IMG/VR virus record: IMGVR_UViG_3300020404_002650
Coordinates: 1,728-65,727 of that record
Strand: one strand, 5' to 3'
Length of the DNA stretch: 64,000 bases
DNA from: a virus
Taxonomy: Duplodnaviria > Caudoviricetes
Of the stretch, positions 2,922 to 38,652 are shown piece by piece; the first letter of the stretch is position 1, and every line of letters starts with the position of its first letter. A program made the position numbers and the translations under genes. Below the pieces are notes generated by a model. It worked only from the letters and a program-made list of their open reading frames with translations, was not told the origin of the DNA and searched no databases.

Positions 2922-2972
2922 AATATAGTATACTATAATGGTGTTTGAAAAAGCAGATAATTACAGAACATT

Positions 2973-15567: not shown

Positions 15568-18008
15568 TGCTTGAAAATTATTTAAAAGGTGATGCTTCGA
15601 CACCCAAAGCACCGGGAGGTGATAAGTCATGGACGGGACAGAATCCAGGGCCGTATCTCGGCATAGTCAAAGGCAACAAAGATCCTGCAAGGATGGGTAG
15701 GCTAAAAGTATTCATACCTACTCTTGCAAAGACTTCAGATCCTAGCGAAGATCAGTTAATCACTTGTGATTATCTCGCACCTTTTTATGGTGCTAAAGGT
15801 GGACAATTCACAAATGGTGCCAGCAGGGAATACGAAGACAGTCAACACGCTTATGGTTTTTGGGCAGTGCCACCGGATCTCGAAACAAAAGTCCTTGTGA
15901 TATTTGCTGAAGGTAAAATGGAACAGGCCTATTGGATAGGTTGCGTACAAGATCCTTTCACAAATCACATGGTACCTGGTATTGCCTCAAGTTCAAATAC
16001 ATGGGACACTGTAACAGGACAAAAATCAGGTCCACCCAGTACCGCCGAACCAAGTTTAGATAAGCAAAAAACTTACGGCACGGACAACGTTCCTGCGGGA
16101 GAGTTGAACAGGAACACACCCGGCGCACTTACTAACAACAATTATGAGTCAACACCAAAGCCAATACACCCATTTGCGGATGTCTTATTGAAGCAAGGGT
16201 TGATAGCAGATCCCGTAAGAGGCACAACTTCTTCATCGGCTAGACGTGAAACTCCAAGCCAAGTGTTTGGTATCAGCACACCAGGCAGGAAAGATAAAGG
16301 ATCACAGAAGAAAAAAGTAGGCCCGAAAAATGCTACGGCACAAGATTTTGTTTCCAGAGGTACAGGACAAACTTTTGTTATGGATGATGGTGCGATCGAC
16401 GGAACAAATCAGTTGACCAGACTAAGAACTGCGTCAGGACACCAATTATTAATGCATGACACAGAAGGTGTGGTCTATATAGCAAATGGTTCGGGAGATG
16501 CATACATAGAAATGCAATCCAACGGAAGGATAGACGTCTACTCTGGGATAGGGGGAATCAATTTAAGGACGGAAGGAGATTTCAATTTACACTCTGACGC
16601 AAACATAAACATGCACGCCAATGGACAAGTGAGATTTAGTGCCGCCAACGAAATGATTCATTCTGCGGACGCATTATTAAATTTAGGAGAAAAAGGAATA
16701 TTCAATAGTTCTCAGTCAGGTACTATAAGAGACTTTGCAAGGGACGGATTAAGTTCGTTCACCAACGGCACTCAACTTCATGGAGCAGGAGGACAGATTC
16801 ACCTTGCAGGTGCACAGGTGCATTTCAACTCGGTTGGCGCAAGTTCACAGTGGGGACCAGGTTGGCTTACGCAGGAAAAGGTCGGTATGCAACTACGAGA
16901 AGAAGGCGATGTAGAACTGACACAGAAAGGTATCAAACCTTTAGAGCAGTTTTCGAGGAAAACAAAAACTACCGTTCATAGATTTGTAACACATGAACCA
17001 ATGTTTAGGGCCAGCGTAATTACAAATGATGGCATTATACCTATTGCATCGGACGACAAAAAGCAATGGAGCAAATTGGCAAACCAACCAGGCACTCCGG
17101 AATTCCTGAACCAACAGAACAGAATAAGTGAGAATAGTTCGATCAGAGATGCACAGTACCAGGCGGACGCATTGGAATACGTAAAACAGAAAATGGGAAA
17201 TAGCACAGATGCTAAAAAAGCCAAAAAATTATTGACCGATTTTGGAACTACTTACAATGACATTTATGGAATCTCCAAAAAAGCAAATTTACCTTTTGAT
17301 CTAAAAGATAGTATTTCAGAAAAAATAAAGGGATCTCAATTTGTCACCGACGCCACAACGGTCACTGGCAAATTGACAACGCAGGTATTGGAGAACTTTA
17401 AAGGTACCAGCACAAAACTTTTCAAAGACAACGTGTTTGTGAACTCTACAGGCGAATTATTTTCATTAGGAGGAAACACTATTTCCGGAATAACGGAAAA
17501 TATAAGCATAGTAAACGATAGTTTAAATGTTGTCAAAGGACTGAAAGGAAATCTTTCTACCGATGTCACACCAACAATTGGAGCGATCAATAGCATCACG
17601 AAAACATATTCTAGTGTGGTTGGAGGCAAAATAGTTGGGATGAACCAAGTCAAGAGCCTGGCATCAAAAACAGGTTTGTTTAACGCAAGGGAGGCAGGCA
17701 TAGCAGGACAAAGTTTCCTACAGAATGTTGGAGCCAACTTAGGAACCAAAATAGGAGCAATCGGTGGTGCTGTAAAAACTTTCTTCAGTGGTTTCAAATT
17801 TAGTGACAGAAGACTCAAAGAAGATATAAGATTAATTGGCAAGTCACCGAGTGGAGTTAACATATATTCGTTTAAATACTATCAAATACCAGGCAGATAC
17901 ATTGGTGTAATGGCACAGGAAGTTCCATGGGCAAGGCACATGACCGACTATGGATATTATGCTGTTGATTACAGTAAAGTAGATGTTGAATTTAGGAGAT
18001 TAAACTAA
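15567..18008 (+). CDS. gp5/VgrG-like central spike with C-terminal S74-type intramolecular chaperone domain
   Basis: OB-fold DPARMGRLKVFIP...YGFWAVPPD...YWIG; beta-helix region FVMDDG, RLRTASGHQ; C-terminal FSDRRLKEDI...GVMAQEV...VDY. Confidence 0.8.
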   Translation: MLENYLKGDASTPKAPGGDKSWTGQNPGPYLGIVKGNKDPARMGRLKVFIPTLAKTSDPSEDQLITCDYLAPFYGAKGGQFTNGASREYEDSQHAYGFWAVPPDLETKVLVIFAEGKMEQAYWIGCVQDPFTNHMVPGIASSSNTWDTVTGQKSGPPSTAEPSLDKQKTYGTDNVPAGELNRNTPGALTNNNYESTPKPIHPFADVLLKQGLIADPVRGTTSSSARRETPSQVFGISTPGRKDKGSQKKKVGPKNATAQDFVSRGTGQTFVMDDGAIDGTNQLTRLRTASGHQLLMHDTEGVVYIANGSGDAYIEMQSNGRIDVYSGIGGINLRTEGDFNLHSDANINMHANGQVRFSAANEMIHSADALLNLGEKGIFNSSQSGTIRDFARDGLSSFTNGTQLHGAGGQIHLAGAQVHFNSVGASSQWGPGWLTQEKVGMQLREEGDVELTQKGIKPLEQFSRKTKTTVHRFVTHEPMFRASVITNDGIIPIASDDKKQWSKLANQPGTPEFLNQQNRISENSSIRDAQYQADALEYVKQKMGNSTDAKKAKKLLTDFGTTYNDIYGISKKANLPFDLKDSISEKIKGSQFVTDATTVTGKLTTQVLENFKGTSTKLFKDNVFVNSTGELFSLGGNTISGITENISIVNDSLNVVKGLKGNLSTDVTPTIGAINSITKTYSSVVGGKIVGMNQVKSLASKTGLFNAREAGIAGQSFLQNVGANLGTKIGAIGGAVKTFFSGFKFSDRRLKEDIRLIGKSPSGVNIYSFKYYQIPGRYIGVMAQEVPWARHMTDYGYYAVDYSKVDVEFRRLN

Positions 18009-18487: not shown

Positions 18488-21400
18488 ATGGCCACAACAG
18501 ATAGACAGAACAGATTATTAGTAGCCGAAGATTGGCGTAAGATTTATCAAGCGTTTCAACAGGCAGATTTCAAATCTTACGATTTTGAAACTTTACGTAG
18601 AACAATGGTATCTTATCTACGTGAGAATTATCCAGATGATTTCAATGACTTTGTAGAGAGTTCAGAATATGTTGCACTTATTGATTTAATTGCCTACATA
18701 GCACAGGCACTATCTTTCAGGGTAGATCTTAACGCAAGAGAAAATTTCTTAGAAACTGCCGAAAGAAGAAATTCAGTATTGAGACTAGCGAGATTAATCA
18801 ATTACAATGCCAAAAGAAATAGGCCTGCAACTGGACTTTTAAAAGTAGATTCTATATCTACAACACAAACTGTCAATGATAGTTCAGGAGCCAACCTTGC
18901 TGATCAAACTATCATATGGAATGACAGTGCTAATTCTAATTACAGACAGCAATTCACAGCAATTTTAAATGCCGCTAATCAAACAGGACAACTTTTTGGA
19001 AGTCCGAGAGAGAAGAAAACTATTGGGTCAGTGGATACGGAAGTTTACACACTATCGTCCAATCAGTCAGATCTTCCTATATACCAATTCTCCAAAGACA
19101 TCGGAGGCACGTCAAGAGTATTTGAAGTTGTGCCAAGTTCGATTAATGATTCTGACAGCATTTACGAGTCAGCACCTGTTCCTGGAACAGGCCTTACATA
19201 CACTTTTAGAAATGACGGAGCAGGCGATAGTTCAAACAACACAGGTTATTTTTTCCTTTTCAAACAAGGTACAATGGAAAACACAGAATTTACTGTCGAC
19301 ACTGCCATTACAAATTTTGTTAGAAGTTTCACTACTTCTAATGTCAATGACACGGATGTTTGGTTGTACAAGTTGGATCAGTTCGGACAAATTTTTGAAC
19401 AATGGACAAAGGTTCCTTCTTTATCCGGTAACAATGCCATATACAATTCTTTAAGCAAAGACGAAAGAAATATTTTTAACGTTGTCAGTAAGGCTGATGA
19501 CACAATAGATCTTGTCTTTGGAGATGGAAACTTTTCTAACCTGCCTCTTGGCACTTTCAGGACATACTACAGAGTATCAGACAATGCCAAGTATGCAATA
19601 CAACCAAGTGACATGCAAGGTATATCTTTGTCAGTGCCATACATTGATGCAAATGGATCACAACAGACATTGACAATGGGGATAAGTTTAAAGCAATCAG
19701 TTTACAACTCTGCCGCTTCCGAATCCAACGATTCTATTAAGGAAAAAGCAGGACAGGTATATTATTCACAGAACAGGATGATTACAGCAGAGGATTATCA
19801 AGTAGTGCCATTATCTGCTTCACAGGAAATTGTTAAAGTTAGATCTGTAAACAGAAGTGCTTCAGGTATATCAAGGGCAAAAGAAATACTTGATCCAACT
19901 GGTGCTTATTCTAATGTAAGTGTTTTTGCAGAAGACGGCATACTTTACAAAGAAGAAAGTGCTCCAACTTTTACTTTCACATTCAAAAATAAAAATGACA
20001 TTAAGTCTACTATTGATAATTCTGTCGAAACGAAAACAAAAACTGCATACGCTAGACAATTTTTCTATGACAAATATGCACAAAAAGATTTGTCAACACT
20101 TACAGCGACATGGAGTTCGTCTACTACAGGCACTAATACAAATACCGGCTTTTTCACATCGGGCGGTGCACTTGCTATAGGAGATTCGGCAACTAGTAAT
20201 TTTAAATTCGCAAAAGTTGGCTCATTAATCAAATTTACTTCTCCAGACACTAGAGAATTCTTAAATGGAAAATTAGTTACCGCAGGTACAGAAAACGCAG
20301 AAGACAGAGCATGGGCAAAGATTGGTGCTGTGGTTGGAGATGGTTCAAACAGTGGACAAGGCAATCTTGATTCTGGTGCAGGTCCTGTTACGTTGAATGA
20401 CATAGTGCCAGACGGTGCAGTAGTAAATGCTGTGATTCCAAACTACACAACTTCATTTAGTACTACACTGGAAAATGACATGATTGATAGAATTGAAAAT
20501 TACGAAGACTTTGGTTTACGATACGACATCGACAGTGAATCTTGGAAGGTAATCACAACAAATAATTTAAGTGCAAGTTCTACTTTTAGTTTGACAGCCA
20601 CAGGAAGCACGGCAGGAACAAATTTAGATGCAAGTTGGTGGTTCAAATTCACCACAGACGGAAACACATATACAGTTACGTACAGGAAATTAGATTACAT
20701 ATTTGAATCAGAAGGACAAAACAAATTTCATTTTGATGTAGAAGAAAAAATTTATGATTACAAAACCGGCAAGAGCGTTAAAGATTCTGTAAAAATTTTA
20801 AAAACAAATAGCATTGTATCAACTGGAAATGCAATTGGTTATCCAATTATGTGGCAAGTAGTCGACACGGTCACAGAAGCAGACGGATTCAGAGATAACA
20901 GGAAAGTGCAGGTTGGGTTTTTTGACGACGATGACGACGGGGTAGTAGACAATCCCGAAATATTTGATATTGTAGTAGAGCCAACTCTTTCGGTCACTAC
21001 TAAATTTGTTTTCTTTGAAAAGTATGTAAGTTATGATGACATCGAAAGATTCAGACCTTACGCGGCATCTAATTTTGTTGTAACCGAAAATGAAACAGAT
21101 ATAAATCTTGCAACAACAACTTACACAGATGGACAACTATTTTATTTCTACGCTGACACAGAAAACGTTATTAAGAAATATGACTCAAGCACTAATTCAT
21201 TGACTACAAGCACAGATTACTATGCACGTAGGGGAAGAAGTAATATAGACTTTCAATACAAGCATCATGCAGGACAAGAGACAAGAATTGACCCAAGCGT
21301 TAGTAATATTGTTGATGTGTATATGCTTGAAAGAACTTATGATAATTTGTTTAGAATATGGTTACAGGACGGCGGAGTGAAGCCGTCAGTTTCAACATCA

Positions 21401-21976
21401 GACCAGATGAGAATCAATTACTCTGGTGTGCTTAACCCACTGAAATCATTATCAGATCAGATAATTTACCATCCTGTCAAATACAAAATTTTATTTGGAT
21501 CCAACGCCCCTGAGCCACTACAGGCAACTTTTAAGGTTGTTAAAAATCCTAAAACAAATGTTACTGACGCTGTAATCAAAACAAGAGTGATTGCCGCAAT
21601 TAACGAGTTTTTTGCACTGGATAATTGGGACTTTGGAGATACTTTTTATTTTACAGAACTTGCCGCATACATTCACAAAGAACTTGCACCAGACTTGTTG
21701 ACTGCTGTGATTGTGCCTAACGAATCAGAACAGAGTTTTGGGTCTCTGTTTCAAATTAATTCAGCGGCAGACGAAATTTTCATCAGTGGGGCCACCGTTG
21801 ATGATGTATCGATTATATCAGCACTAGGAGCCAATCAACTTGCGGCTTCTGGCACTGTGGTTACATCAACATCAACCACGTCAACGAACACAACTACGGG
21901 TTCAGCAGTATCAGGCTCTACTACATCAGGATCGGGATCAAGTTCAAGTTCCGGCAGTAGTGGGGCAGGTTACTAA
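18488..21976 (+). CDS. gp6: Baseplate wedge protein (gp6/baseplate J-like), 1162 aa
   Basis: [45 protein letters not shown]. Confidence 0.85.
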
Positions 21977-24900
21977 TGGCTGACACACCAATCAATTCAC
22001 AAGCAAATCAGGAAGTTGTAAAACAAGGTGACAACGAGTACAGAAGATCAGTACAACACCTTCCGGCATTCTACAGGACAGATACCAACCAACGTTTCTT
22101 GTCTAGCACTTTAGATTCTCTAATACAAAAAGGATCTCTAGAGAGATTAGACGGATTTATCGGACGGCAGGACGCCTACACAAGGGAGGTCACAGATAGG
22201 TATCTTGGTGCAACCAGTAGAGATAGATTTGCATATCAACTGGAACCTGCAGTAACCTATATTGATAACGATACAACATCTATCAATCCAGAAGACCAAG
22301 TTAAGTTCACTGGCACATATGATGACTATATCAATCAACTTAAATATTTTGGAGCCAATGTTGACAACCATGATAGATTAAACAAAGAAACTGCATACTC
22401 GTGGAACCCAGCAGTTGATTATGACAAACTTGTTAATTACAGGGAATACTATTGGGTGTCGGATGGACCAAGTGCTATAGAAATAGATTCAGTTGGGACA
22501 GGAGCAGAAGTTGAATTCAAAGTAGAAGCACTGGCGGACGACGGAACCACAGGCAGAGCATACAGTTTCCCACATAAGGAAAATTTACGTAATCCAGAAA
22601 TTACGCTTTATAGAGGAAACACATACAAATTTACAAAAAGTGAAACAGGACATCCTTTCTACATAATGTCCGAGCCAATATCAGGCGGGATAGCCGCGGA
22701 CGGATCAACATCGGTACATTACAACGAAGGTGTCACAAACAACGGTGTGCAAAAAGGTACACTAACATTTGTTGTTCCAACAGATGCCCCTAATACGTTA
22801 TACTATCAATGTAGCAGTCATGAAAACATGTACGGGGTGCTGAATATCAAGACTGTTGCTTCTAATTCACAGATTGAGGTAGAAGATGACATCGTAGGTG
22901 TAAAAAATTACAGCCTTAGAACACTTGCCCTATCAAACGGTATGAAGATAAAATTTAAAACCGATCTGGTTGCAAGTGCATATAAAAACAAAGAATATTA
23001 TGTAGAAGGTGTAGGTGATGCTATATCATTGACAGATGTCACATCTTTAGTAACACCAGAATCGTATTCCGATGACGGAACGCCGAAAGATAAAGATTAC
23101 ATTACAATCAAAAGGGACAGCAGAGATCAAAACCCTTGGTCACGTTACAATAGGTGGTTCCATAGAGATAATATTGACAAAGCGGCTACCGTTAATGGCA
23201 CTCCAAAAGTGCTTGATGAGAATGATCGAGCAAAAAGACCCATTATAGAATTTGATTCTGGATTGGCTTTATACAATCATGGAACAGTTGCAAAGGATCC
23301 TGTCGATCTATTTGACACAACTATTACTGATGCTTTGAGTGTAGTTCCTAGAGCAACAGGTTATTTTATAGACGGTGTTGAACTTACACAAGGAATGAGG
23401 GTAGTTTTTTCCGCGGACACAGATATCGCAGTAAAAAATAGGATTTACACTGTAAATTTTGTTACAGCAGGAGATTCAACGCAAGTGATTGCATTGGTAG
23501 AGACCAACATTGTCGGCGATAATGAAAACATTTATGTCAAACAAGGCACACTAGGTAAAGGCAAGAATTATTATTACGACGATACAAACAAAGTATGGAA
23601 GACTGCTCAATCTAAAACAAAATTAAATCAGCAACCTCTTTTTGGTATGTGGGACAATGACCATGTATCTTTTGATGACGCAACGACTTATCCCAATTCG
23701 ACTTTCGCGGGGGCAAAAGTTTTATCATTTGCAACTTCTGACAGTGCCACGGAGGATACCGTGCTGGGCATCAAAGTCAAATATAGAACAATTAACAATG
23801 TTGGAGATATTGTTTTTGAGTCAGATCACACGTCGGGTACTTTTACATACAAGACAGGTAAAAAAACAATTACAAAAAATTTAGCAGAAGGTCATTTACA
23901 TTACACTACAAGTAGGACAACACACAATTCTCGTAGTGCATGGATCAAAAGATCTGCATCTAGTAAACAAAGGGTGATAAGGACTTTTATAGTAGACGCA
24001 ACTGAAAAACAACTTTTTCCTATAGATTTTTTCAAAAATTCTGCCAGCCTAACAGATCTAGATATTTCCGTACAGGTTAACGGCGCAAGGAAGACTGTAA
24101 CAACTGACTACACACTAGTAGATGGCAGTACCAACAAGTACGTAAAGTTTAACGCAGAACTTAAGGTTGATGATCAAATAAGGATCGCGGGCCATAGCAG
24201 TGCTGACAAAGTCGCCAACAAAGGAATATACGAAGTACCTGAAAATCTTTCAGTAAACGGTTTGAACACAGCAACTAATGAATTTACTTTTGGACAAATT
24301 GTTAATCATGTAAAAGATATACTAGACAAAAACAGTGCGGTTACAGGATCAATACCAGGGCAGTCAAATTTGCGAGACAAACCAGATGCAAGGTTGTTAG
24401 GCGGATCTATTCAGCAACACGAAGCATCTATTGTACCGGCAATATTTGGTCTAACAGATCAAGAAACCAATGTACTAACAGCAATAGATTATGTAAACCT
24501 ACAATACGAACAATGGTACAATAGTTTCCTTACAAATGCAGTTGGCACTGCTTATGAAGGAGTTGCCAGAGACAGGGTTGACGAAATTATTGAAACAATA
24601 TCGGTAGGCAAAAACAGTAAGTTTCCTTTCTTTTATGAGGACATGATTGGATATGGGCAGAACGTGTCTACAAGAAGTTACACTGTCCAGGGAACATCGC
24701 AAAAGGATTACGCGATTGATTCTTTGCACGATATCACAAAATTAAGCAATAGAGCAGTCTACGTATATCTTAATGATGTGCAGTTGGTGTTGGGTTCAGA
24801 ATATACATTCAGCACAACAGATGATAGCATTAATATTTCAAAAGCACTGACCGTGGGTGACAAAATAGTAATTAAGGATTACGCTGACACAACAGGAAGT

Positions 24901-27900
24901 TATGTTCCTCCAACTCCGACAAAATTAGGAATCTATCCTAAGTTTAAGCCTGAGTCATACACTGATGACAGTTATACCACATCTACAAATGTCATAAGAA
25001 GACACGACGGTTCTATTATCAAGGCCTATGGCGACGAACGCGATGATCTTATTTTAGAATTGGAAAAAAGAATATACAACAACTGTAAGACAGCATACGA
25101 CAGTACAAACCTTGCATGGGGAGATGTGATGCCAAGTGTGTTTACATCAACAGAGTATACACGTAAACAAGTTGACGACACAATGGCCGCTGATTTTTAT
25201 GTATGGGCAGGCAGGAACAAAGTTCAATACATAAACAATACAGCGTTTTCGGAAGGATCTCCTTTCACATACAACTATTCGCTATCAACGGACAGGGTGA
25301 CAGGACAAAACCTACCTGGTTACTGGCGTGCCATTTACAAATTTTTCTATGACACAGATACACCACATTTGACACCGTGGGAGATGTTGGGTCATTCAGA
25401 GAAGCCAAGCACTTGGGAGGCAACGTATGGTGCGGCACCGTACACTGCTGGGAACGATGTCTTATGGAATGACATTGCATCTCATCAGGGTAGATACGGC
25501 AAGCCTGACGTAAGGACATATCTTCCTGTAGACGCATCTGGTAACCTATTAGATCCACTGGCTATCGGTATTGTTAATTTCTTTGACATTCCTGGCAGGG
25601 GACTACCATGGAAGTTTGGTGATCATGCACCAGCGGAGACTGCCTGGAGGCGTTCTAGTGCATATCCGTTCAGTGTTTTAAAAACTTTGGCTATTACAAA
25701 ACCTGCAAAATTCTTTGAGAACCTATTTGACGTATCTCGATTATCTATAAACTCGGCAGGTAACAAAATATCATCCGATACTGGAATAAGATTTAATCTT
25801 AATAAAGCCAAATATCATTTAGAAACAGAAACAGACGTAACGACAGGAGTCACTACGAGATTTATGACAGCAGGATATCAAGTTTTTGTAGTAAATTATT
25901 TGACAGGCAAAGGGTTGGATCCTAAGGCATTCTATTACGACAAGATGAAGAATCTTGATATTCAATTGGTTTACAAACTGGGAGGTTTTACAGACAAGGA
26001 TAATATTAAAGTTTTGACTGATTCTGTTTCGCCGGGTTCAACAGCAGGATCAAAATTTATACCGGACGAAAACTATAAAATAAACTTTAGGACATCAAAC
26101 CCAGTTGAAAGTTTTCAGTATTCTGGTGTGTTGATAGAAAAAAATACTGATACATCACTTGACGGGTCGTCACTACTTGGTGGGTTTAAAGTTTTAGGAT
26201 ATTCAACAACAAAACCATTTTTCAACTTCAATTATCCAGTAAAAACATCGACCAAATCTTCTTTGAAAGTTGAAGGTTCGGTTGGGGTAGATCAATTCAC
26301 AAATTATCAAGAAACAGTACAGACTATTCCATATGGATATGTTTTCACTACTGTACAAGACGTTGCAGATTTCTTGTTGGGATACGGAAATTATCTAGAA
26401 TCAGAAGGCTTTAAATTTAATAAATTTTCAAAAGAGATAAAAGAAACATTAAACTGGACAAATGCTGTTAGAGAGTTTTTATTCTGGACCACACAGGAAT
26501 GGGCACCTGGATCGGCAATAACAGTTTCACCTGCCGCGGACGGATTTGAATTAGACACCAACAACAGCATTGTTGGCAAGTTGAGGAACCTGGCAGGAGA
26601 TTATAGCATTGTTGATGCAGGCGGAAGAAAAATTGACATCAGAGAGATAAGCACAAAACGTTTAGGAAAAACTTTTGATCTTACAATGAAGTCGGCAGAT
26701 ATTGGTTTATATAACATCGAATTAAACACTGTTCAGAAAGAACATATTCTAATATTTGATAACAACACAGTGTTCTCCGATGTGATATATGATCCATTTA
26801 CAGGGTTCAGGCAACAAAGATTAAAAGTGGTTGGTTGGAAGACAGGTAACTGGGATGGCGATTATTATGCACCTGGGTTTGTATTTGATGCGGCGCAAGT
26901 TACATACTGGATCGCAAATACAGATTACAGAATAGGCGACGCAGTTGAATATCAAGGTAAGTTTTATGTTGCGTCCGTCAATCATAATGCAGGCGATAAG
27001 TTTATTAGCGATAATTGGGTGCTTAAAAATGACAAACCGGCGCCGCAACTTATTCCTAACTTCGAATACAAGATTGCACAGTTTAATGACTTCTATAATC
27101 TTGAGACAAATAATTTTGATGAATCTCAACAGCAACTTGCACAGAGATTAATAGGTTATCAGAGCAGGGACTACCTAGAAAACTTATTTGTAAATGATGT
27201 TTCGCAATACAAATTCTATCAAGGCTACATTAGAGAGAAAGGCACACAGAGTGCAATAGACAAAATTCTTAAAGCCAAGTATGAAAACTCAGATATTACT
27301 TTAAATTTTTATCCAGACTGGATGATAAGAACAGGACAATTTGGTAACCTTGACAGTATAGAAAATATACAAGTTACCTTAGACGACAAAACTATCAACA
27401 CAGACCCTTTAAGTTTAGAATTTTTTGACACAGAAAGTTTTTCAAAAGATTATGTGAGATCGGTAGGAGTGTTCAAGGATAATTTTTACTACAAACCGTT
27501 AGAATATACAGCGTCAGACACTTTCAAGCGTTATGACTTCACACAACCAGGCAAAGACAGGGACAATGTGCAGATTTACAAGACAGCAGGTTATCCTCAG
27601 GTCCAACAAGTGCAACATACAGCATTTTACATTCAGGATCTGTTGTCACTTGATGTTGAGTCAGTATCAAGAAATGATCTTATTTGGGTAGCCAGCAAAG
27701 AAAATGCAGACTGGGACGTTCTTAGAATGACGTTTTCAGGATTTAAGATTGACTCGTTACAACCAAACATCAATAACACACAAATGTTAATTAAATTTAC
27801 AGATTCACATGGATTGACCGCGGGCAGTGCCACAACAACGGCGGACTATTTTGCAATAACAAATAGTGAAAGCACAACATTAAACAGAGTCTACCGTGTT

Positions 27901-30900
27901 GCTAGTGTTCCTACCCACGATAGTGTGTTGGTGGAATACGACGACGATACAACTTTTATTCCTACATTAGCAGATGGTTCGACGGCAGACAGTTACGGCA
28001 ACATTTACAAATTTATTTCAGTAAGAATCAATTCGATGGACAATGTAAATGACAGGCTGGCATATTCAGAATATAAGGATAAAAACGACACACTTGAAAT
28101 TCCCGGCGATAAGGTATTTGCAGATGCTGACACATCTGGTTTGTGGCGTGTTTACGAAAAACAAGATCCATATACTGAAAAAATTATCAATTCGCCAAAC
28201 ACTACCACAAGTAACCAAGAGTTTGGATATCGTGTTGTGGCTAGGAACGATGGTAGGACAGTTGTTGTATCGGCACCTGGCAAAGGGCAAGGAGAAGTAC
28301 ACTTCCTATTCAGGACGTCACACAACGCAGGGACATCTTTTTCGACGCAGGCAACTGCAACAATGACAGAGAACGATGACAATACAAGCAGATTGGGAGA
28401 GTCATTATCAATAAGCACAGATGAAAACTTTGTTGTTGCTGGTGCACCATATACAAACACACTGGACAATGACGGCAGTACACGGCAGATAGATGCAGGA
28501 CTGATCAAGGTGTACGTATGGAATCCTGACAGATATCAATATGGAATACTAAACACGTTGACACCTCCAACTGATGGTTCGACCGAAAATGAAAATTTAA
28601 ATTTTGGTTGGTCGCACAAGATTGCCGAACCGACTGATGCATCAACAAGAAGCACAGCAAGGAAATACTTGTTTGTTTCTGCCCCTGGACATTCAAATGA
28701 CACAGGTGTGGTTTATATGTACACATGGGGAATAGGTGCTGATGGATCGACTTATGATACTTGGACGCAGGACGCATCGATAATGTCGCCAGCGGGCGGG
28801 TCGGCTCAGAGATTTGGACACAGGCTTGAAACAAATGATAATGGTGATATATTGGCAGTGAGTTCAATAGCACCTGGCAACGCTGGAAAAGTAGAAATAT
28901 TTGTTAGGCAAGGTGCTTCAGACGGTGACAGCACACAAAACACATTTACGCATGTGCAAACATTGACAGGAGTAACATCAGATGGTTCAACGCTGAACAC
29001 TGCATTTGGTGAGTCAATTGCTATGAGCAAAGACGGAACAACACTTATAATTGGTGCAACAGGAGTTGACGACGTACAAGTGGACGCAGGAGCAGTTTAC
29101 ACATACAAATGGAACGCGGATGGTTCTACTAACACATATACGCTACAACAAACAATTAATGCTCCTGATAAACTAGACAACGTAAGATTTGGATCAAGTG
29201 TGTCGTTGACACAAGACGGAACAAGGTTAGCAATTGGCGCCGAAAAATCTGCAAACCCTAGAGAAATGAAATTCGATTCAGGAGAAACAACTTTTGATTT
29301 ACAAGACACAAGGATTGTGGACACAAACGAAGGTTCGGGTGCTGTTTATACTGCTACAATATACAATTCACAGTATGTGTTAGACGATAGGTTAGTATCA
29401 ACAAAAGTGTCCTCGTTTGACGATTTTGGAAGAGGCGTCAGCATGTCTGCCAACAATCTCTTTATTGGTTCTCCGAACGATGAAGGCAATCCTGATCTAA
29501 CTAATGACGGAACAGTACATCAGTACGATTGTAACACAGACGGAGAGTATGCTTGGAAAAATTTAACAACAGAAACAAACTTTATCGACATTGAAAAATT
29601 AGGACAGGTATTTGACTTCAATAACGGTACAAAACAAATAGGAAATTACTACGATCTTTATGATCCAATAAAAGGCAGAATACTTGGACAGGCAGATAGA
29701 GAAATAAATTACAGATCACCTTGGGATCCTGCCACTTACAACACAGGAGATCAAAGCAATATTAAAACACCTTGGCTTGAAGATCATATAGGGGAAGTAT
29801 GGTGGGATCTAACAAAAATAAAATATATCTGGTACGAGCAAGACGATCAGCAATACAAAGTCAACAACTGGGGTAAATTATTTCCTGGCTCAAGCGTTGA
29901 TGTGTATGAATGGACAGAATCTAGCCTTTTACCTGAGGATTGGAATGGCCTAGTTGGTTCGGAAACCGGCAACAATAATAGTATATCAGGAATAGCAAAC
30001 CTACAATACAGTGTGGCACAAAGGTATGACTCCAGGTTGGACGCTTTGGTTGATGTTTATTATTATTGGGTAAAAAACAAAAACACGCTACCGAGAAACA
30101 GCGTGGTTCATAGGAAAAATACTACAGGTTATGTTGCCAATCTAATTTCTAATCCTAGATCTGGTGCAGTGCAATGGTATGCGGCAACAGATACTAATAA
30201 AATAATGATTAATAAATTATCTCCATTAATTAATTCTGATGTCGTTTTGAATATTGACATAAGGAAGAATGACTTCGAGGGAGATGCACACAGCGTATGG
30301 AAACTTGCAAGAGAGGGCGATAAGGATTGGAGGCCTAATGCCGAAATCGAAACCAAGTGGTGGGATTCATTGTGCGGACAAAACAGTGCAGGTGATGTTG
30401 TGCCTGATGTCAATTTACCTATATACAACAGGTATGGAAACAGCATTAGACCAAGACAAAGTTGGTACGTTGACAGGCTTGAAGCACTCAAAGAAATTAT
30501 TGACTACGCTAACAGCGTAATAAAGAAAACTCAATTGGCAGGACAAGTCAGCCTCGATAATTTGAACAGTGAAGACCCTGAGCCTACAGTAGAGAGTGGA
30601 GAGTGGGACGCATCTGTCGACACATACGCAGACCTAACTTACATCAATACTGCTGATATATCGGGCTCGGTAAACTATCTGGTCAAAGCAGACGAGACTG
30701 CCAATGACTTATGGGCGATATACCAATGGGATGGCACACAGTTTAATAGAACAAAAATTCAAACTTACAATACTTCGAAATATTGGAGTTACACAGACTG
30801 GTACGGCACTGATCCTGCTATCCATGAGATGATCCATAGTGAAAATACTCCTATCGATAAACAGGTAACTTTTGAATACGAACTAGACGCACTTGACCTT

Positions 30901-33900
30901 GCTGTAGGTAAGCATGTCAAAGTGACAAACGCCGACACAGGCGGATGGAAACTGTTCATGAAAACAAGTACAGGTTGGACAAACGTTGGAACAGAAAATG
31001 GAACTTTCAAATTAAGCACAAAATTATATGATTACAGCCAGGACGCAACAGGATTCGCAGGCGAGGATAATTTTGATGACAACACTTTTGACCAAGAGCC
31101 CAACCAAGAAACTAGACAAGTATTGAAAGCATTGAAAGAAGATTTCTTCAAAGGCGATCTGTCTATCGAATACAACAATCTGTTCTTTGTGGGTTTAAGA
31201 AAAGTTCTTGAGGAACAGACTTATGTGGATTGGATGTTCAAGACTAGTTTCATAACTGCTGTTAACAGTGTCCGATCATTGGATACCAGAAAAACATATA
31301 CAAAAGGCACTGACACTTGGATAGAAAGTTACATAAATGAAGTAAAACCTTTCCATACAAAATTAAGGAATTACAAATTGGGTTACTATGCACCAGAACA
31401 ACACGATGGTGTTATCACTGATTTTGACAATCCACCATTCTATGACGAGACGACTGGCAAGATACGTAAGTTTAACCCAACATACGACACAGCAAAACGC
31501 ACAACGTATCCATGGCAATTGTGGTACGATTATTACACTAAACACGTGAAATCAATCACAGTGTTTGCAGGTGGCTCTGGTTACGAGACAGCACCAACAG
31601 TCACAATCAGCGGCGGAGGTGCAACCACACAGGCCACTGCCACTGCTACTATCACTGGAGGAGTGGTCACTTCTATCACATTGACAGGTATAGGTTTTGG
31701 TTATACATCCACACCAACTGTGACGCTTACTGGCGGTATGAACGATGGCACGGCACCAAGTGATGCCGCAAAAGCCTACGCAAACCTGGACAATGACCTT
31801 GTCAGGGATTTTGATACAACTATAAAATTTGACAGGATAACAAGCACATCGACTGTGGTTGACTGGGCGGCGAACACAACTTACAAGTATGGCGCTAAAA
31901 TTAGATACCAGAATGAATTATACAAAGCAGTGAACGAGTTTACATCTACTACAGACTTTGATGACAACGAAGGTGCAGTGACAAAATATTACGGCGACGA
32001 GACAGGATTAACAGCGGCTGATAGGATAAAAGGATTCTACACACCAACAGATGGCATGCCAGGCAATGAGTTGTCACAGGTCATGTCAGGAGTTGACTAT
32101 GGTGGCACGATGGTAACGGGACTACTTTTCAAACAGAGTCAAGGCTGGGATGAATCTGCATGGTACGACTATCCATGGGACAACTATGGAGTATCTAGGG
32201 TAAGAGCATTTTACGCCGACGGTACTACAAAAGCATTTACTTTCGCAGGCGAAACGTCAGTGGTATATCATGTTTATAAGACAGAAAGTGATGAACGTAC
32301 AAAACTTTCAGATACATTTATTGGAACAGGCAGTGAGGCAACTTACACCTTGACTGGCGCAACACCAAACGAGAATGCTTTGATAGAATTCATACCTGCA
32401 GACGACGATGGTGTGTTGACGCCTACTGATGATAGAACTTTAGACAGCATTATCAAAGGTGGTTTGTTCACCAAGAACGGATTGTATGGCAGTGCATTGG
32501 GTACAGCACCAAGTGACATTAACGTTGACGGAGATGCTTTTGTTTCATCCACAACAAGTTACGCACCTGAAGAAGTTGTGCCGGGACAAATATTTGACAC
32601 AGTGGACATAAAGGTTTATACTGCACCTGAAAGTGGTGTGCCTTTGATCACTGACAGAAATTATCATGGCGATGGTAGCACAACAACATTTGCATTGGGT
32701 GATCATCCTGGAACGTTGGCGTCGGTCAAAGTCTCAGTAGATGGAGTGACTAAAAAAGCACAGATAGATGGGTCAACAGTAGAGGATTACACAATTGATG
32801 TAGGTGCAAAAACAATTACATTTACAACTGCACCAGGAAGCGGTGCTTTAGTATCAACAAAAGTTTTTGCAATATCTGGTGTAAATTACAGAGTGCTGGA
32901 CACATTCACAGGTGACGGTTCTACAACTGTGTACACAACATCGGCAAGACAAGACTTCAATATAGATTCCACTAACTCTGAGATCTATGTGACAGTAGAT
33001 GGTGTGCCTACTACGGACCTCACAATAACATATACAGATCCTGAACACGCAGATGGATCTACAACAATAATTGGCAATACTGCTATTGTTACTTTTACAA
33101 CAGCACCGACGTCGGGACAGTTTATACAGATTGCAGGATTCCAAAGTTCAAGTACCACAAGGAGTGTGGCACAGATCAGATCAGAAGACTTCACTTATGA
33201 TGAGTCAACTACCAATTATGCATTGACGTTCCCGCCAGGGTCTATTACACCAATGCACGGTTTGTGCATAATCGAACTTGATGGCAAAGTTTTGAGAGGA
33301 CCTGACACAACTTATTACAAAGGCGACGGAAGCACATACACCTACGGTGTTGCATCTTCATTGAGCGATGGTTCAACAGTTGACCCTGCGAAAATTATTA
33401 CGAACACAAACCAAATAGAAGTTCACTACAACGGTAGAAAATTATCTGAAGGTGCCTTACCAAACGGCAACTACACTGTTGACCTGGCCGCACAAACTGT
33501 AAGTACAAACGCACCTGCAAATCCAGGCGACATTGTTGCAATAACAACTTTAGTTGACAAACACTACCAGATAGACAATCAGCCTAGTTCACCTGTGTTG
33601 GTATTAGACACGGCACAAATGCATACAGACGGCTTCAACAAGTCAGGCACTATGAGAGTTACAACTTTTAATAATGCACTTGGCATGAAATATCGTAGGG
33701 AAGTATTAGAAGGCAGACCAAATGGAGAATTCTTCTTGCATGACGAGCCGTTGAATTCAACTTACATGTATGTTTGGTTGAACGGAATTCAACTTACGCA
33801 GAATGTTGACTTTGCGTTCAACTTTGCGTTGGATGGACCAAAAATTACAGTCCATGGCAAGACTATTACAACAAGTGACAGACTAGATGTGATGTTCTTT

Positions 33901-34623
33901 GCATTGCAATCGGCAACAGATTCAATTGGATACAGAATATTCAAGGATATGTTGAACAGAACTTTTTATAGAAGAATATCTAAAACACACACTACAATAT
34001 TGACCGAGACACTGCAAACCACAGACACAACAATTACTGTGGCAGATGGCACAAAACTTGCAGAACCTGGATTCACTATATCAACTGACGGAAGCACGAT
34101 CAGTGACAGGACGCCAGGTGTGGTGTTTATAGGCAAAGAAAGAATAGAATATTTTACCAAATCAGGTAACACGTTGGGACAATTACAGCGTGGTACTCTT
34201 GGAACAGGAATTAAGGAGCATGGATCAGGTGCAGAAGTGGTAGACGCATCTGGAACTCAAACCATACCTTATGTGGACACAGTACATACCAATACCTTTA
34301 CGGGTGATGGTAGCACGGCAGTGTTCACTTTATCACAAACACCGGCTTCTGCTAGTGAGTTAGACATATTCATTGGTGGCCAACGAGTGTTGCTCACTAG
34401 CGAGGACGGTTCAACAATCAACTATTCTGTGGACGGAAGCACAACTGCTGTGACATTCACAACAGCACCTGCTGACGCTGAACAGATCAAAATACTACAC
34501 AAGAGAGGACAGGTATGGACAACAGCGGCTGATGGTAATCCTGGCGACGGCAAGGGATTACAAGGATCAACTACTGCACAGGCTAAATTCATAGCGGATG
34601 AGCCTACAAATGCACCTGAATAA
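21976..34623 (+). CDS. Giant (4215 aa) baseplate/virion structural protein, gp7-like position
   Basis: Follows gp6. HLPAFYRT N-terminus, [20 protein letters not shown]-like propeller repeats, CBM5/12-like repeats, cupredoxin-like motif, GDGST repeats, C-terminal ERIEY...QRGTLGT. Confidence 0.8.
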
Positions 34624-35361: not shown

Positions 35362-36579
35362 ATGGCATACACAGTAAACAAAAGTAACAACTCTGCGTCA
35401 CCTAACCAGTACACAGTACAGGATGGTGTTGTTAATACACAGACTGACTTATCATTCATAGGTAAGGGATATGCAGGATATGGTGAACTTATAGCAGAAA
35501 ACTTTTTACATCTTTTAGAAAATTTCAGTTCTGACACTGAACCATCTAAACCCATACAAGGACAACTTTACTACGATTCAACAAACAATAGATTAAAAGT
35601 GTACACAGGAACGCTTTTTGTTCCTGCAGGTGGTAACGTACCTTATCAAGCAAACACACCTTCGGGAATACAACAAGGTGACCTTTGGATTGACTCTGAC
35701 CTGGGACAACTTTTTTACTGGGACGGATCACAGAACGTGTTGGTCGGTCCACCATCTACCACAGGAACACTAAATGGTTTTGTTTTCGAAGCAATTACGG
35801 ATTCCACTGCGACAAGTAGAAATATTACAAAATGGTACAGTGACGGTACACTGATTGCAATCATTTCTGACATAGAATTTACTCCGCAAAGCAGTATCAC
35901 AGGCTTTGCCACAGTCAAAAAAGGAATTACTTTTACAACAAATCCTACAGGAGTTAAACTACACGGCACTGCCACAGATGCTGATGCTTTAGGTGGAGTT
36001 GCGGCGGCGTCTTTCTTAAGGTCAGACCAGAACGACACAACAACAGGAACGCTAGGTATTGTTACAGACTCTGGTATGACAGTTGGTGCTGACAATGACC
36101 TATCTATCACAGTCGACGGAACAGGTATCAACATACAAAACACAGTAAACAACACAGACATAACTTTCAAAGTAAACGATGGCTCAGTGACAACCACTGT
36201 AATGACAATCGACGGCGCTGAAAGCAGAGTTGGTATAGGAACAACTTCGCCTACAACTAAACTGGATGTATCAGGTACAGTGAATGCAACAGCGTTTACA
36301 GGACCAATTACAGGTGCTGTAACAAGTTCCGGCATCACACTAACACAAAGTGGTACTATCATATTCGAAGGTTCCTCAGATGACGACTTCGAAACAACAC
36401 TTACTGTTGCAGACCCAACAGCCGACAGAACAATTACCATACCAAACGTGTCTGGTACAGTTGTAACAACAGGTGATTCAGGCACTGTGACGGCGGCGAT
36501 GATGGCCACACCAACACAATTACAAATTTTAAGCAGTGCAGGAGCGGTATTAAAGACCATCAACGGCGCAGGAGCGTAG
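35362..36579 (+). CDS. Tail fibre protein A
   Basis: IGKGYAGYGE...ENFLHLLENF anchor, GQLYYD/GDLWID, VGIGTTSP, PTADRTITIP fibre motifs. Confidence 0.75.
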   Translation: MAYTVNKSNNSASPNQYTVQDGVVNTQTDLSFIGKGYAGYGELIAENFLHLLENFSSDTEPSKPIQGQLYYDSTNNRLKVYTGTLFVPAGGNVPYQANTPSGIQQGDLWIDSDLGQLFYWDGSQNVLVGPPSTTGTLNGFVFEAITDSTATSRNITKWYSDGTLIAIISDIEFTPQSSITGFATVKKGITFTTNPTGVKLHGTATDADALGGVAAASFLRSDQNDTTTGTLGIVTDSGMTVGADNDLSITVDGTGINIQNTVNNTDITFKVNDGSVTTTVMTIDGAESRVGIGTTSPTTKLDVSGTVNATAFTGPITGAVTSSGITLTQSGTIIFEGSSDDDFETTLTVADPTADRTITIPNVSGTVVTTGDSGTVTAAMMATPTQLQILSSAGAVLKTINGAGA

Positions 36580-36625: not shown

Positions 36626-37561
36626 ATGGCAGTTAGAAAACCTTTATTATACAACGGCGCACAACTTCAACAAGCAAAGACATCAGACCTTGAGAACCTT
36701 TACACTTTGGGTGCATATTACTATTCTTTATCACCTTCAAGAACTTTGACAGTGGCTGGTTCTGGAGGAAACCTAACCAGCATAGACGATACAAGATTGC
36801 AGGCAGGTGCGGCTTCAACGGCATCAGGCAGTTTTCCAAGTGAATCCACAACAGCAGAGCCATCGGAAGTGACTGTGAGTTATCAAAGAATTACTCAAGT
36901 AACAGGCACAGCAAATATTACCACATCAGATTCGGGTAAAACTTTTCCAGTTTATTGGAACGGAACGCAGGTTCAGGCAATGACCGAACAAGATTTCATA
37001 GACACTTTTGTGCATCCAACTATCGATCAATTAGTATTAGGTACAACAACTTCGGATCAGGCAGGCACATACCATATAGCGACATCAACATCAGTTACTG
37101 GTTCGACTTTAGTGTCATCCACTCCGATATTCACAGACACAAGGGCAGACACTTCGGCATATTCTGCCAGTGAGATTGAGGAAACACTTGATCAACCAAC
37201 CACTATTACAAATTACTACTTGCACATTATTGATGGAGTGGAACCAACATACAATCCACCTATATTCATTGACTCATCAAACAACCTAAAACAGTATTCG
37301 ACAGCAGAGATAGGAGCACTACTTCAAGAATACATTAAGAACAAGGTAGTGAACTCTTCTGATGGTTACCAATTGTCCTACAACATAGACGGTAGTATCG
37401 GTAACGCAAGGGGAAGTGCAATAGTAAACACAAGATTGACAGGCGGCAGTGGTAATTACCAGACACGATTTGTTGGATCTAGTGATTACAGGGCACAGGA
37501 ATTCCCAGACGGAACGCCAAACACTGTGAATACCTACACTTTTAAAATACAGAAATCTTAA
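36626..37561 (+). CDS. Virion structural protein (Thr/Ser-rich)
   Basis: MAVRKPL..., DTR motifs, YRAQEFPDG; fibre neighbourhood. Confidence 0.55.
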   Translation: MAVRKPLLYNGAQLQQAKTSDLENLYTLGAYYYSLSPSRTLTVAGSGGNLTSIDDTRLQAGAASTASGSFPSESTTAEPSEVTVSYQRITQVTGTANITTSDSGKTFPVYWNGTQVQAMTEQDFIDTFVHPTIDQLVLGTTTSDQAGTYHIATSTSVTGSTLVSSTPIFTDTRADTSAYSASEIEETLDQPTTITNYYLHIIDGVEPTYNPPIFIDSSNNLKQYSTAEIGALLQEYIKNKVVNSSDGYQLSYNIDGSIGNARGSAIVNTRLTGGSGNYQTRFVGSSDYRAQEFPDGTPNTVNTYTFKIQKS

Positions 37562-37590
37562 TTGACTTTTTTCCAGTGTTTTGTTACAAT
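37562..37590 (+). promoter_or_regulatory. Sigma70-like promoter at the start of enzyme island 1
   Basis: TTGACT-N17-TACAAT, then AAGGA RBS and ATG 37614. Confidence 0.65.
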
Positions 37591-37613
37591 AAGACAACAA
37601 AAAAGGATTTACA

Positions 37614-38084
37614 ATGGCTATATTCAGCGGAAAAATTATAGAGGCATACTTTGCCAATTCAGAAAACAACACTGTTGAGATAATTTACGAGGATGGCAAG
37701 AGAGCAATCAATCATTATCTACCTGTTGACTACAACAATCCAGATTTCAAAGATCTTATAGCAGAGTACAGCACTGACAAAATTGCCGAAGCCACGATAG
37801 CCAGGAACAGGAGATACGCACAGCAGTTAAGTGATGTGGTTGATGCAGGCATCAAGGCCAAAACTGATTTGAAACAACGTGTATCAGTAGAAGATTTCGT
37901 GAAAAGTATTCTTAATTTTGACCCTAATGATCCGCAGTGCAAAGAAATGTTGTTTACAACAAAGGTTGAAATTTTTGAAACAGAGAAAGTAAAAGGATCA
38001 ACAGACAAAGCAAAGAAATCCAAGTTGAGATCTGCACAGACTCCTCTTGAATTGTTGGTTACCTACAACGAGTTTGATGATTGA
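37614..38084 (+). CDS. Hypothetical protein (possible fibre chaperone)
   Basis: 156 aa ORF with RBS; no recognised motif. Confidence 0.6.
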   Translation: MAIFSGKIIEAYFANSENNTVEIIYEDGKRAINHYLPVDYNNPDFKDLIAEYSTDKIAEATIARNRRYAQQLSDVVDAGIKAKTDLKQRVSVEDFVKSILNFDPNDPQCKEMLFTTKVEIFETEKVKGSTDKAKKSKLRSAQTPLELLVTYNEFDD

Positions 38085-38652
38085 TGTTTATTGTGTTAAT
38101 GTTGGAACAAAATACACCAGAGACTTTGACAGCAAGTTAAAGGATTCTGTCGCAAAACATCTTACACTCGAACACAAATTCCATTGCTTAACGGATAGAC
38201 CAGAAAAGGATTACGACACACCTGTTACACACCCAGAACTACGAGGTGTGTTCCATAAATTGTCTTTGTTCCAGAACACAGGCAAGTGTCTATTTTTTGA
38301 TCTAGATATTGTCATCAACGATAACATAGATTTTCTAGCAAATGATTTTGACGGACTTACTCTAGTCAACAGCAGTGCTTGGAAACAGGAATCGCTGAAG
38401 ACACCTGTTAAATTTAGGATTACGCAGAACACATTGGTTAATTCATCGATAATGAGATGGAGTGACCAAAGGCATGTGTTTGAAAAATTCATTAAACATC
38501 GTGATCTTTACGTGAGATTGTATTCTGGCATAGATAGATATATCTACAATGAAAGCGTCAAGTACAATTATTTTATGGGTGATCAAATTTCTAGTTGGCA
38601 GGAGGGTGTGAAACACAATACAATAGTGTTACACAATCAAAAATATGTTTGA
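38077..38652 (+). CDS. GT-A fold glycosyltransferase (GT8-like)
   Basis: GTKY, FHCLTD, KLSLF, LFFDLDIVI (DxD), NSSIM. Confidence 0.8.
   Translation: MIDVYCVNVGTKYTRDFDSKLKDSVAKHLTLEHKFHCLTDRPEKDYDTPVTHPELRGVFHKLSLFQNTGKCLFFDLDIVINDNIDFLANDFDGLTLVNSSAWKQESLKTPVKFRITQNTLVNSSIMRWSDQRHVFEKFIKHRDLYVRLYSGIDRYIYNESVKYNYFMGDQISSWQEGVKHNTIVLHNQKYV

Follow-up and report, generated by a model that had tools for sequence, protein, structure and literature searches.

Why does one tetrapeptide, Asp-Gly-Ser-Thr (DGST), recur so often in a single giant virion protein of a marine phage, and what holds it there? The protein, 4215 amino acids (aa) long, is encoded at positions 21976..34623 of the window, by which we mean the whole stretch of DNA that was analysed, a 64-kb piece of the 65.7-kb viral contig IMGVR_UViG_3300020404_002650; the gene, and every feature of it located below, lies on the plus strand. 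It was assigned as a virion or baseplate protein from its open reading frame (ORF) and translation and from a match to PHROG 10938 ('virion structural protein', 1103 bits). We demonstrate here the enrichment of DGST in this protein, selection on it at the protein level, its location in loops, the fold of the domains that carry it and a gradient of its abundance across the clade. The motif is probably a favoured structural turn, which would be kept by selection for folding and stability.

An earlier, sequence-only reading of this stretch had counted 18 DGST copies by hand, and an exact count returned the same number at the same places (each Asp codon starts at the first position of the ranges given below). 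The variants that it mentioned are all present as well (GDST twice, DAST, DEST and DGSS once each, DGTT three times), and the extended form GDGST, which it had put at about four sites, occurs at exactly 4 of the 18. Asp, Gly, Ser and Thr are each common in the protein (7.3-11.1%), and its composition predicts 0.224 copies of the tetrapeptide, with a Poisson P(>=18) of 2.5e-28, or 4e-23 when corrected for 160,000 tetrapeptides. In the proposed comparison with shuffled sequence, 5000 residue shuffles averaged 0.23 copies and never exceeded 3, compared with 18 observed. In 300 shuffles, the commonest tetrapeptide of any kind had at most 5 copies, and the next commonest tetrapeptides of the real protein have 5 copies each. 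The four residues behave as a single unit: DGS is followed by Thr in 18 of 20 cases, and GST is preceded by Asp in 18 of 20. A stricter null built from family-typical Asp-Gly preferences raises the expectation to 2.9 copies (P = 2e-9) and a second-order Markov model raises it to 8.9 (P = 0.005); with homologous positions collapsed, about 10 independent positions are left, which still give P = 7e-14. The other reading frames of the window contain no DGST on the plus strand and two on the minus strand, and in 80 related loci the density of the motif is 3.36 per 1000 aa in the giant ORFs versus 0.22 in the ORFs downstream. The enrichment of DGST is real and under selection.

That the codon variety points to selection on the protein, as the same reading had argued, is well supported. 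The 18 sites are encoded by 17 distinct 12-mers and take Ser from both the TCN (11 sites) and the AGY family (7 sites); no direct DNA repeat longer than 28 nucleotides (nt) was found, and a single short repeat pair touches a DGST site. Relatives were compared in two sets, neither of which was de-duplicated, and near-identical sequences are counted repeatedly in both. The first comes from a search with aa 1980-2480, in which 308 proteins reached E <= 0.001; it consists of the 120 best-scoring proteins (68-99% identical over the query part), minus nine that are shorter than 4000 aa and plus the query, which makes 112 full-length orthologs. The second comes from a scan of viral contigs, in which 346 relatives were confirmed and 80 loci kept, with the C-terminal part 48-75% identical. 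The 112 orthologs hold 10-21 DGST copies each (median 16), and all 80 loci have the giant ORF, with 7-18 copies in the part of the ORF that is present. Altogether the family uses 32 alignment positions for DGST, among them several where most orthologs have the motif and the query a variant of it (DGSS at aa 1396, DGDST at 2317, DGTT at 3415, GTGSE at 3451 and DEST at 3742). At well-kept sites the motif is conserved above its flanks, for example 0.96 vs 0.50 at aa 242 and 1.00 vs 0.64 at aa 2000, and in the two regions modelled below the identity to the query across relatives is 0.72 for DGST residues, 0.58 for other coil and 0.62 for strand (locus L070 excluded). Pooled over 18 recurrent sites and 81 sequences, position 1 is Asp in 95% (Asn in 1%), position 2 Gly in 89%, position 3 Ser in 89% (Thr in 4.5%) and position 4 Thr in 82% (Ser in 13.5%). 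Across the loci, each of nine conserved sites is encoded by 20-39 different 12-mers, with both Ser codon families in use at eight of the nine. DGST is under strong purifying selection at the protein level.

Two AlphaFold models, based on alignments of 46 and 47 sequences, together cover 16 of the 18 sites (aa 242 and 716 lie outside). The model of aa 1914-2545 (mean predicted local distance difference test score (pLDDT) 85, predicted template modelling score 0.83) is an integrin-alpha-like propeller, and that of aa 3540-4215 (mean pLDDT 76) is a chain of small beta-sandwiches. The suggestion that the motifs would map to loops of such models holds for all 16 modelled sites, each of which DSSP assigns to coil between beta-strands. 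Of the 64 motif residues, 62 are in coil, whereas coil makes up a fraction of only 0.52-0.55 of each model as a whole. Coil is also assigned to 11 of the 14 other Asp-Gly pairs of the models (DGTT, DGTR, DGRT and so on), among them those in the short hairpins that join blade strands 1 and 2. At pLDDT 82-94, the four GDGST sites have a common DSSP pattern, EEEEEEE-[DGST]-EEE.

The sites outside the GDGST group had been placed in unrelated domains, including apparent propeller loops, and this view has proved right, since Pfam and the model agree on a real FG-GAP propeller. This integrin-alpha-like beta-propeller (about aa 2050-2527; 28123..29556) matches PF14312 FG-GAP_2 in three stretches (65 bits vs a cut-off of 23), and its model matches integrin alpha propellers in Foldseek with probability 1.00 and E-values down to 8.7e-15 (4wk2_A, template modelling (TM) scores 0.47/0.64). 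It is an insertion in a conserved core: BLASTP alignments to the homologs of the phages PA5oct, Atu_ph07 and RaK2 skip query residues 2049-2526. The RaK2 alignment continues across the propeller, with query residue 2048 aligned to RaK2 residue 1814 and query residue 2548 to RaK2 residue 1820. Six DGST sites lie within the propeller or just before it. The one before it, at aa 2000 (27973..27984), sits in a long conserved loop (coil, block pLDDT 54) and is DGST in 110 of 112 orthologs; its Asp, Ser and Thr are invariant in the alignment of the propeller region, where the surrounding stretch is conserved as a whole. The five others use three blade positions. Two strand-loop-strand sites, aa 2256 (28741..28752; DGST in 104 of 112, DEST in 7) and aa 2382 (29119..29130; DGST in 65, DDST in 26; pLDDT 93), lie in the hairpin that connects strands 3 and 4 of a blade. 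The loop preceding the 'FG' strand carries aa 2200 (28573..28584; DGST in 68, DGSS in 34) and aa 2336 (28981..28992; DGST in 36, DGSS in 76), and the loop following the 'GAP' strand carries aa 2166 (28471..28482; DGST in 109), all three in coil. Judging from the strand order of the model, these sites would lie on both faces of the propeller. As an observation apart, the stretch aa 1990-2015 (27940-28020) is almost invariant in the 112 orthologs, yet the model shows it as a long loop at a pLDDT of about 54; it may form an interface with another chain.

Ten of the 18 sites are found in the C-terminal array of beta-sandwich modules (aa 3540-4215; 32593..34620). Four of them are the GDGST module starts: aa 3566 in the start hairpin of module 1 (32671..32682; DGST in 10 of 112 orthologs, NGST in 38, DGTT in 25; pLDDT 94), aa 3647 in the start hairpin of module 2 (32914..32925; DGST in 97; coil between strands), aa 3784 (33325..33336; DGST in 93, DGTT in 19; strand-loop-strand) and aa 4111 in the start hairpin of the last module (34306..34317; DGST in 109; pLDDT 88). 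Within modules, the motif also occupies the mid-module loop, at aa 3598 and at aa 4144 (34405..34416; coil), and the last hairpin, at aa 4153 (34432..34443; DGST in 82; strand-loop-strand). The site at aa 4144 is DGST in 112 of 112 orthologs and is written in 20 distinct 12-mers with both Ser codon families among 72 loci. At aa 3798, in a long loop (33367..33378; coil), DGST is present in 18 orthologs, DDST in 80 and EDST in 12. The alignment of orthologs, which had been proposed as a way to find lineage-specific insertions, does place three sites in indel-variable loop insertions that are absent from many members of the near clade: aa 3598 (32767..32778; DGST in 17, most others without the insertion or with LDST; coil), aa 3693 (33052..33063; DGST in 17, a gap in 77; coil, pLDDT 53) and aa 4038 (34087..34098; DGST in 37, most others without the nine-residue insertion; coil).

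The two remaining sites are N-terminal. A MAFFT alignment with the C-terminal modules and with residues 1-85 of T7 gp17 suggests that aa 660-745 (23953..24210) are a further copy of the gp17-type module, with a degenerate start motif (VDATEK); its late hairpin would hold the site at aa 716 (24121..24132), which is DGST in 8 of 112 orthologs and TGTK, NGTT or NGTK in the rest. The site at aa 242 (22699..22710; DGST in 96, DGSS in 12) lies in a cupredoxin-like domain (aa 207-285; 22594..22830), which is matched by Pfam At5g54830-like below its cut-off and by tblastn to cyanophage baseplate proteins, and which is common to baseplate proteins of the cyanophage gp9/gp10 type. The loop of this site is longer than in four aligned cyanophage homologs, which have NGSVGG, SG--GS, SGASGT and QGLTGT at this place and DGST in none.

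Comparison of structures with VIA-align links module 1 and the last module to the N-terminal domains of podovirus fibres and to gp10/XD-type domains. The matches are the LME-1 portal-tail complex (9efk_AE, Z 9.9), T7 tail proteins (7ey9_a, Z 9.3; 71 residues aligned, root-mean-square deviation (rmsd) 3.2), TSP4 of CBA120 (7rfv, Z 9.1), the T7 proximal half fibre (8dsp_C, Z 8.9; 66 residues, rmsd 1.8, 23% identity), cyanophage P-SCSP1u (8i4m_M, Z 8.8) and, with Z-scores under about 8 that can mean a common arrangement only, the T4 baseplate (5iv5_AC, Z 7.7) and a podovirus fibre N-terminal entry (T7 gp17; 9jz0_b, Z 7.4). The gp17 N-terminus (7EY9, 8DSP, 9JZ0), T4 gp10 (5IV5) and CBA120 TSP4 (7RFV) have the same small beta-sandwich of about 70-90 residues, at Z 7.4-9.3 and rmsd 1.7-3.2 over 64-79 residues with 13-23% identity. 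The first hairpin of T7 gp17 is also an Asp-Gly-Ser turn, with L-D-G-S-N at the position that aligns with the G-D-G-S-T module start, as seen at aa 4111. Unlike in T7 gp17, the modules of the giant stand in tandem at the C-terminus of a 4215-aa baseplate protein, and the motif occurs also in other loops and outside the module. The whole 676-residue C-terminal model gave low TM scores in Foldseek, and the per-domain matches come from VIA-align only. At the Pfam threshold of E <= 0.1, the whole protein has no match to the Phage_T7_tail profile (PF03906). A profile search of the C-terminal alignment against PDB sequences found marginal matches only (LGI1, E = 0.006), and a phmmer search of the last module against PDB gave only non-significant matches to antibody light chains (E >= 0.11). 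We discarded this likeness, in which 'RFTGSGSGTDFTL' aligns with a 13-letter stretch, as an analogy.

A precedent of solved structure for the turn itself is the PKD domain, in which, according to PMC2781709, the G-D-G-S of W-D-F-G-D-G-S is a strictly conserved C-C' turn that joins two strands of an Ig-like beta-sandwich. Like this turn, the four GDGST sites are strand-loop-strand, which does not make the modules PKD domains: their flanking residues are different, a PKD domain has a single turn of this kind and does not reuse it across loops, and no PKD profile is among the Pfam families matched by the whole protein at E <= 0.1.

The motif is graded across the relatives of the protein. The giants of PA5oct, Atu_ph07, RaK2 and CBB (PHROG 10938) have a core in common with the window protein (query aa 24-2048 and 2527-3190, 23-29% identity). 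Those of PA5oct, Atu_ph07 and RaK2 contain no DGST and, unlike the window protein, lack the propeller and, as judged by BLASTP, the C-terminal modules except aa 3984-4079; 14 of the 18 sites thus lie in parts missing from these three homologs. When the C-terminal alignment was used as a profile, 1692 proteins were found at E <= 0.001, and 149 of the best 150 were new, among them 62 giants of at least 3500 aa. These 62 distant giants, drawn from the best 150 of the 1692, contain 0-7 DGST each. Pooled densities fall from 3.71 DGST per 1000 aa in the near clade to 0.39 in the distant giants and to none in the three jumbo-phage homologs. The share of Asp-Gly pairs followed by Ser is 46% in the near clade, 20% in the distant giants and 16% in PA5oct, Atu_ph07 and RaK2, against a Ser background of 7-8%; this preference is general in the family, so that the clade strengthens a tendency that was already there. 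The modules of the distant giants start with D-G-x-T-x-x-F, the third residue being variable: site 3647 has D in 46, G in 50 and T in 42 of the 62, with F in 45 six residues past the Asp. At site 4153 the distant giants have D/N-G-x-T, and sites 3598, 3798 and 4038 are gaps. From these alignments, a general Asp-Gly-Ser/Thr turn tendency appears to have been sharpened and multiplied in a clade of marine jumbo phages.

DGST may accordingly be pictured as a self-contained turn that closes loops in a beta-rich virion protein. Following textbook turn stereochemistry, the Asp side chain would act on backbone NH groups and so cap the turn in the manner of an Asx-turn, Gly would adopt a left-handed conformation, and Ser and Thr would begin the next strand. 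The ancestral place of the turn would be the first hairpin of beta-sandwich attachment modules of the T7-gp17 or gp10-XD type, in the general form G-D-G-x-T-x-x-F. In the marine jumbo-phage clade, this form would have been sharpened to the exact D-G-S-T and then taken up in about 10 non-homologous loops, some of them in the FG-GAP propeller, others elsewhere in the modules or in small insertions. We infer the hydrogen-bond roles as well as the selective reason, folding or stability. Asn-Gly deamidates fast, and the strong preference for Asp over Asn at the first position could thus fit a long-lived extracellular particle.

Several observations weigh against a purely structural turn. The clade has an approximately 10-fold excess of DGST over its own distant relatives, for which structure offers no explanation. 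Gly is less conserved than Asp (89% vs 95%), with Asp, Glu or Ala taking its place while Ser-Thr is kept, which is odd for a turn that hinges on Gly. At the third position Ser far exceeds Thr (89% vs 4.5%) and is regained via both codon families; the flanks of the sites have no consensus; and at three sites the motif is part of a short insertion and arrives with it. Strongly conserved sites are furthermore found in loops of moderate model confidence (pLDDT 54 at aa 2000, 67 at aa 2256 and 68 at aa 2336), a pattern more typical of functional loops.

These points give some room to an explanation that we nevertheless consider unlikely, namely that the DGST loops are functional surface elements: divalent-cation clasps, glycan-contact loops or docking points for partner fibres. 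Asp, Ser and Thr could supply the oxygens of a cation clasp in Ca- and Mg-rich seawater, and they are kept as well as or better than Gly; conserved sites in flexible, lower-confidence loops and a motif gained through loop insertions would also fit. So would the setting, since the host modules resemble domains that attach fibres to tail or baseplate (T7 gp17 N-terminus, T4 gp10, CBA120 TSP4), fibre-like genes lie directly downstream, and the protein also has a CBM_5_12 module and the integrin-like propeller. However, known Ca motifs are missing. The Ca-binding hairpin motif of integrins is D-x-D/N-x-D/N-G-x-x-D, and neither this nor DxDxDG has a regular-expression match in the 4215 aa. The propeller thus resembles integrin alpha in its profile, which scores above cut-off, and in its predicted fold, and differs from it in lacking this motif and in having DGST at the strands 3/4 hairpin and the pre-FG and post-GAP loops, which would not be the places of the integrin Ca sites. 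The metal-ion-dependent adhesion site pattern D-x-S-x-S was also tried, and among the DGST sites it fits aa 242 (DGSTS) only. Moreover, the propeller sites would be split between two faces, with strands 3/4 hairpins on one and pre-FG and post-GAP loops on the other if the topology is right, and the sites as a whole occur in four or more types of domain, which makes a single partner less likely. The wider notion that DGST is a portable surface motif that has its own function, either as a recognition site for a modifying enzyme or as a cation or ligand clasp, with a copy number under selection, is about equally doubtful; it would explain the 10-fold excess, the strict order of Ser then Thr, the tolerance at Gly and the new copies that arrive with insertions.

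Still less probable is that an enzyme encoded by phage or host modifies DGST as its acceptor sequon, through O-glycosylation of Ser/Thr or beta-hydroxylation of Asp. An exact, self-contained tetrapeptide with variable flanks, which lies in loops and is gained by insertions, is what such a sequon would look like, and virion glycosylation exists in mycobacteriophages (Freeman et al. 2023, as cited in PMC12619734). The general O-glycosylation motif of Bacteroidota, D-(S/T)-(A/I/L/V/M/T) according to PMC8550257, is likewise short, begins with Asp, contains Ser/Thr and lies on exposed surfaces. Unlike it, DGST has Gly between Asp and Ser at all 18 sites, which rules this sequon out for DGST. The pattern D[ST][AILVMT] occurs 30 times in the protein vs 24.5 expected, that is, without enrichment, and never within DGST, and no glycosyltransferase scores above its Pfam cut-off in the 47 window ORFs scanned (a GT2 hint at 51649-52584 stays below it, with E = 0.035 and 14.5 bits vs 23.3). 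The glycosylation sequon that the sequence-only reading had envisaged by analogy with D-S/T motifs gains no support from these results.

Its second proposal, a target for Asp beta-hydroxylases, starts from enzyme genes that are real and fares little better. Pfam identifies two Asp/Asn beta-hydroxylase genes in the window (41226-41843 and 42314-43180), and among the 45 relatives with at least 9 kb of downstream flank, to which all our downstream comparisons refer, 29 have a paralog within about 10 kb downstream, in the fibre gene cluster. The median number of DGST is 14 in these 29 loci and 13 in the 16 loci without a nearby hydroxylase, but all records compared are fragments, 25-29% complete, and an enzyme gene could be located in another part of the genome. 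Only 2 of the 45 relatives have the window's own enzyme island at this place. The hydroxylation consensus of epidermal growth factor (EGF)-like domains is C-x-D/N-x4-F/Y-x-C-x-C; this AspH-type consensus has no match in the 4215 aa, which contain 5 Cys in all. An aromatic residue follows the motif Asp at +6 in 7 of the 18 sites and at +5 in none. In addition, the module-start sites are older than the clade and are present in T7.

The last alternative, that the excess is an unselected by-product of DNA repetition, recent domain duplication or biased composition, can be set aside as highly improbable: ten sites do lie in repeated modules and five in propeller blades, some at homologous positions (four module starts, two strands 3/4 blade hairpins, two pre-FG loops), and the four residues are common, but the repeat scan (nothing above 28 nt) and the diversity of 12-mers, with its switches of Ser codon family, rule out DNA repeats, the expectation of 0.22 copies and the shuffles rule out composition, and the enrichment survives the collapsing of homologous positions. 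A structural turn motif stays the probable answer.

The gene neighbourhood agrees with a baseplate role for the giant protein. Upstream of it lie genes for a gp5-like baseplate hub (15567-18008; phrog_13211) and a gp6-like wedge subunit (18488-21976; phrog_10646, E = 5e-287), and in PA5oct, Atu_ph07 and RaK2 the gene of the giant homolog is likewise downstream of a 'baseplate wedge subunit' gene. Identity to the giants of these phages, CBB and others is 23-29% over about two-thirds of the first 3000 residues. A megablast search of the giant gene against phage records gave zero matches, and in a tblastn search of the last 1215 aa against phage records the first 189 aa alone were matched, in 26 records. 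Four Pfam families match the whole protein at E <= 0.1, two of which exceed their cut-offs, FG-GAP_2 and the carbohydrate-binding module CBM_5_12 (aa 1645-1673; 26908..26994; E = 1.1e-9, 38.6 bits vs 26.2), which carries no DGST. Related contigs of 91-100 kb are rated 25-29% complete, so that the genome probably measures about 350 kb and belongs to a jumbo phage. The hub, which has an oligonucleotide/oligosaccharide-binding fold, ends in a Peptidase_S74 'chaperone of endosialidase' domain (residues 746-786). Beside the baseplate block, the minus strand (8162-11100) encodes an SbcC-like protein (AAA_23/SMC_N, 591 aa) and an SbcD-like metallophosphoesterase (340 aa), similar to the T4 gp46/gp47 pair.

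On the 3' side of the giant gene there are fibre-like genes (35362-36579 and 46882-48504); the second, of 540 aa, has a hint of a Peptidase_G2 autoproteolytic domain. The enzyme island downstream of the fibre genes comprises a fatty-acid-desaturase-like ORF, the two Asp/Asn beta-hydroxylases (41226, 42314), TauD, a methyltransferase, four radical SAM/SPASM ORFs and a carbamoyltransferase. The segment 36626-46871, between the two conserved fibre-like genes, is a variable cassette that holds the desaturase-like ORF, both hydroxylases, TauD, the methyltransferase and about ten ORFs without a family. By tblastn, its ORFs at 38645-43180, including the hydroxylases, recur in 2 of the 45 loci, those at 36626-38652 in 5 and most of 43158-46871 in 0 or 1; loci L018 and L080 have the same Pfam families as the window cassette. 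Many relatives have an alternative cassette at the same place (L013:17633-19305 and L020:16666-18338; also L026, L027, L056 and L068), in which a pair of fibre-like genes, each of about 470 aa and with an Mtd_N match, precedes genes for a 222-aa Asp/Asn beta-hydroxylase, a short-chain dehydrogenase and a protein of 154 aa. Hydroxylases were confirmed by Pfam in 4 of 11 loci (69 of 107 listed ORFs scanned). A PF05118 profile search of five long relative contigs found one in 1 of 5 and missed the homolog in L026, so that its negatives are weak; tblastn places that homolog of the 222-aa enzyme at L026:17298-17963, 87% identical to the L020 copy. At L074:15629-17812 the fibre-like gene encodes 728 aa instead of the usual 470 or so, and its residues 437-540 match Hint and homing-endonuclease-associated Hint families, as would be expected of an intein within a tail fibre gene. 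Further downstream in the window, a run of radical SAM ORFs spans 52436-59618, preceded by the weak GT2 hint and followed by the carbamoyltransferase (62729-64000). In two of these ORFs, 55854-57143 and 58452-59618, SPASM stands N-terminal to the radical SAM core, a reversal of the usual order.

Full-text searches yielded no published account of a DGST motif in phages (the matches listed were unrelated by title and abstract) and no paper on 'Asp_Arg_Hydrox' in connection with phage. If DGST is a structural turn, it would be a clear natural example of convergence, in which a very large, beta-rich virion protein employs one tetrapeptide turn again and again in loops that are not homologous, a result that is not surprising in itself and would be useful for the annotation of gp17/gp10-type modules and for turn design. 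If one of the functional explanations were true instead, an abundant, uncultured lineage of marine jumbo phages would have its first defined baseplate motif for modification or binding, and the hydroxylase genes in the fibre cluster would gain a candidate substrate.

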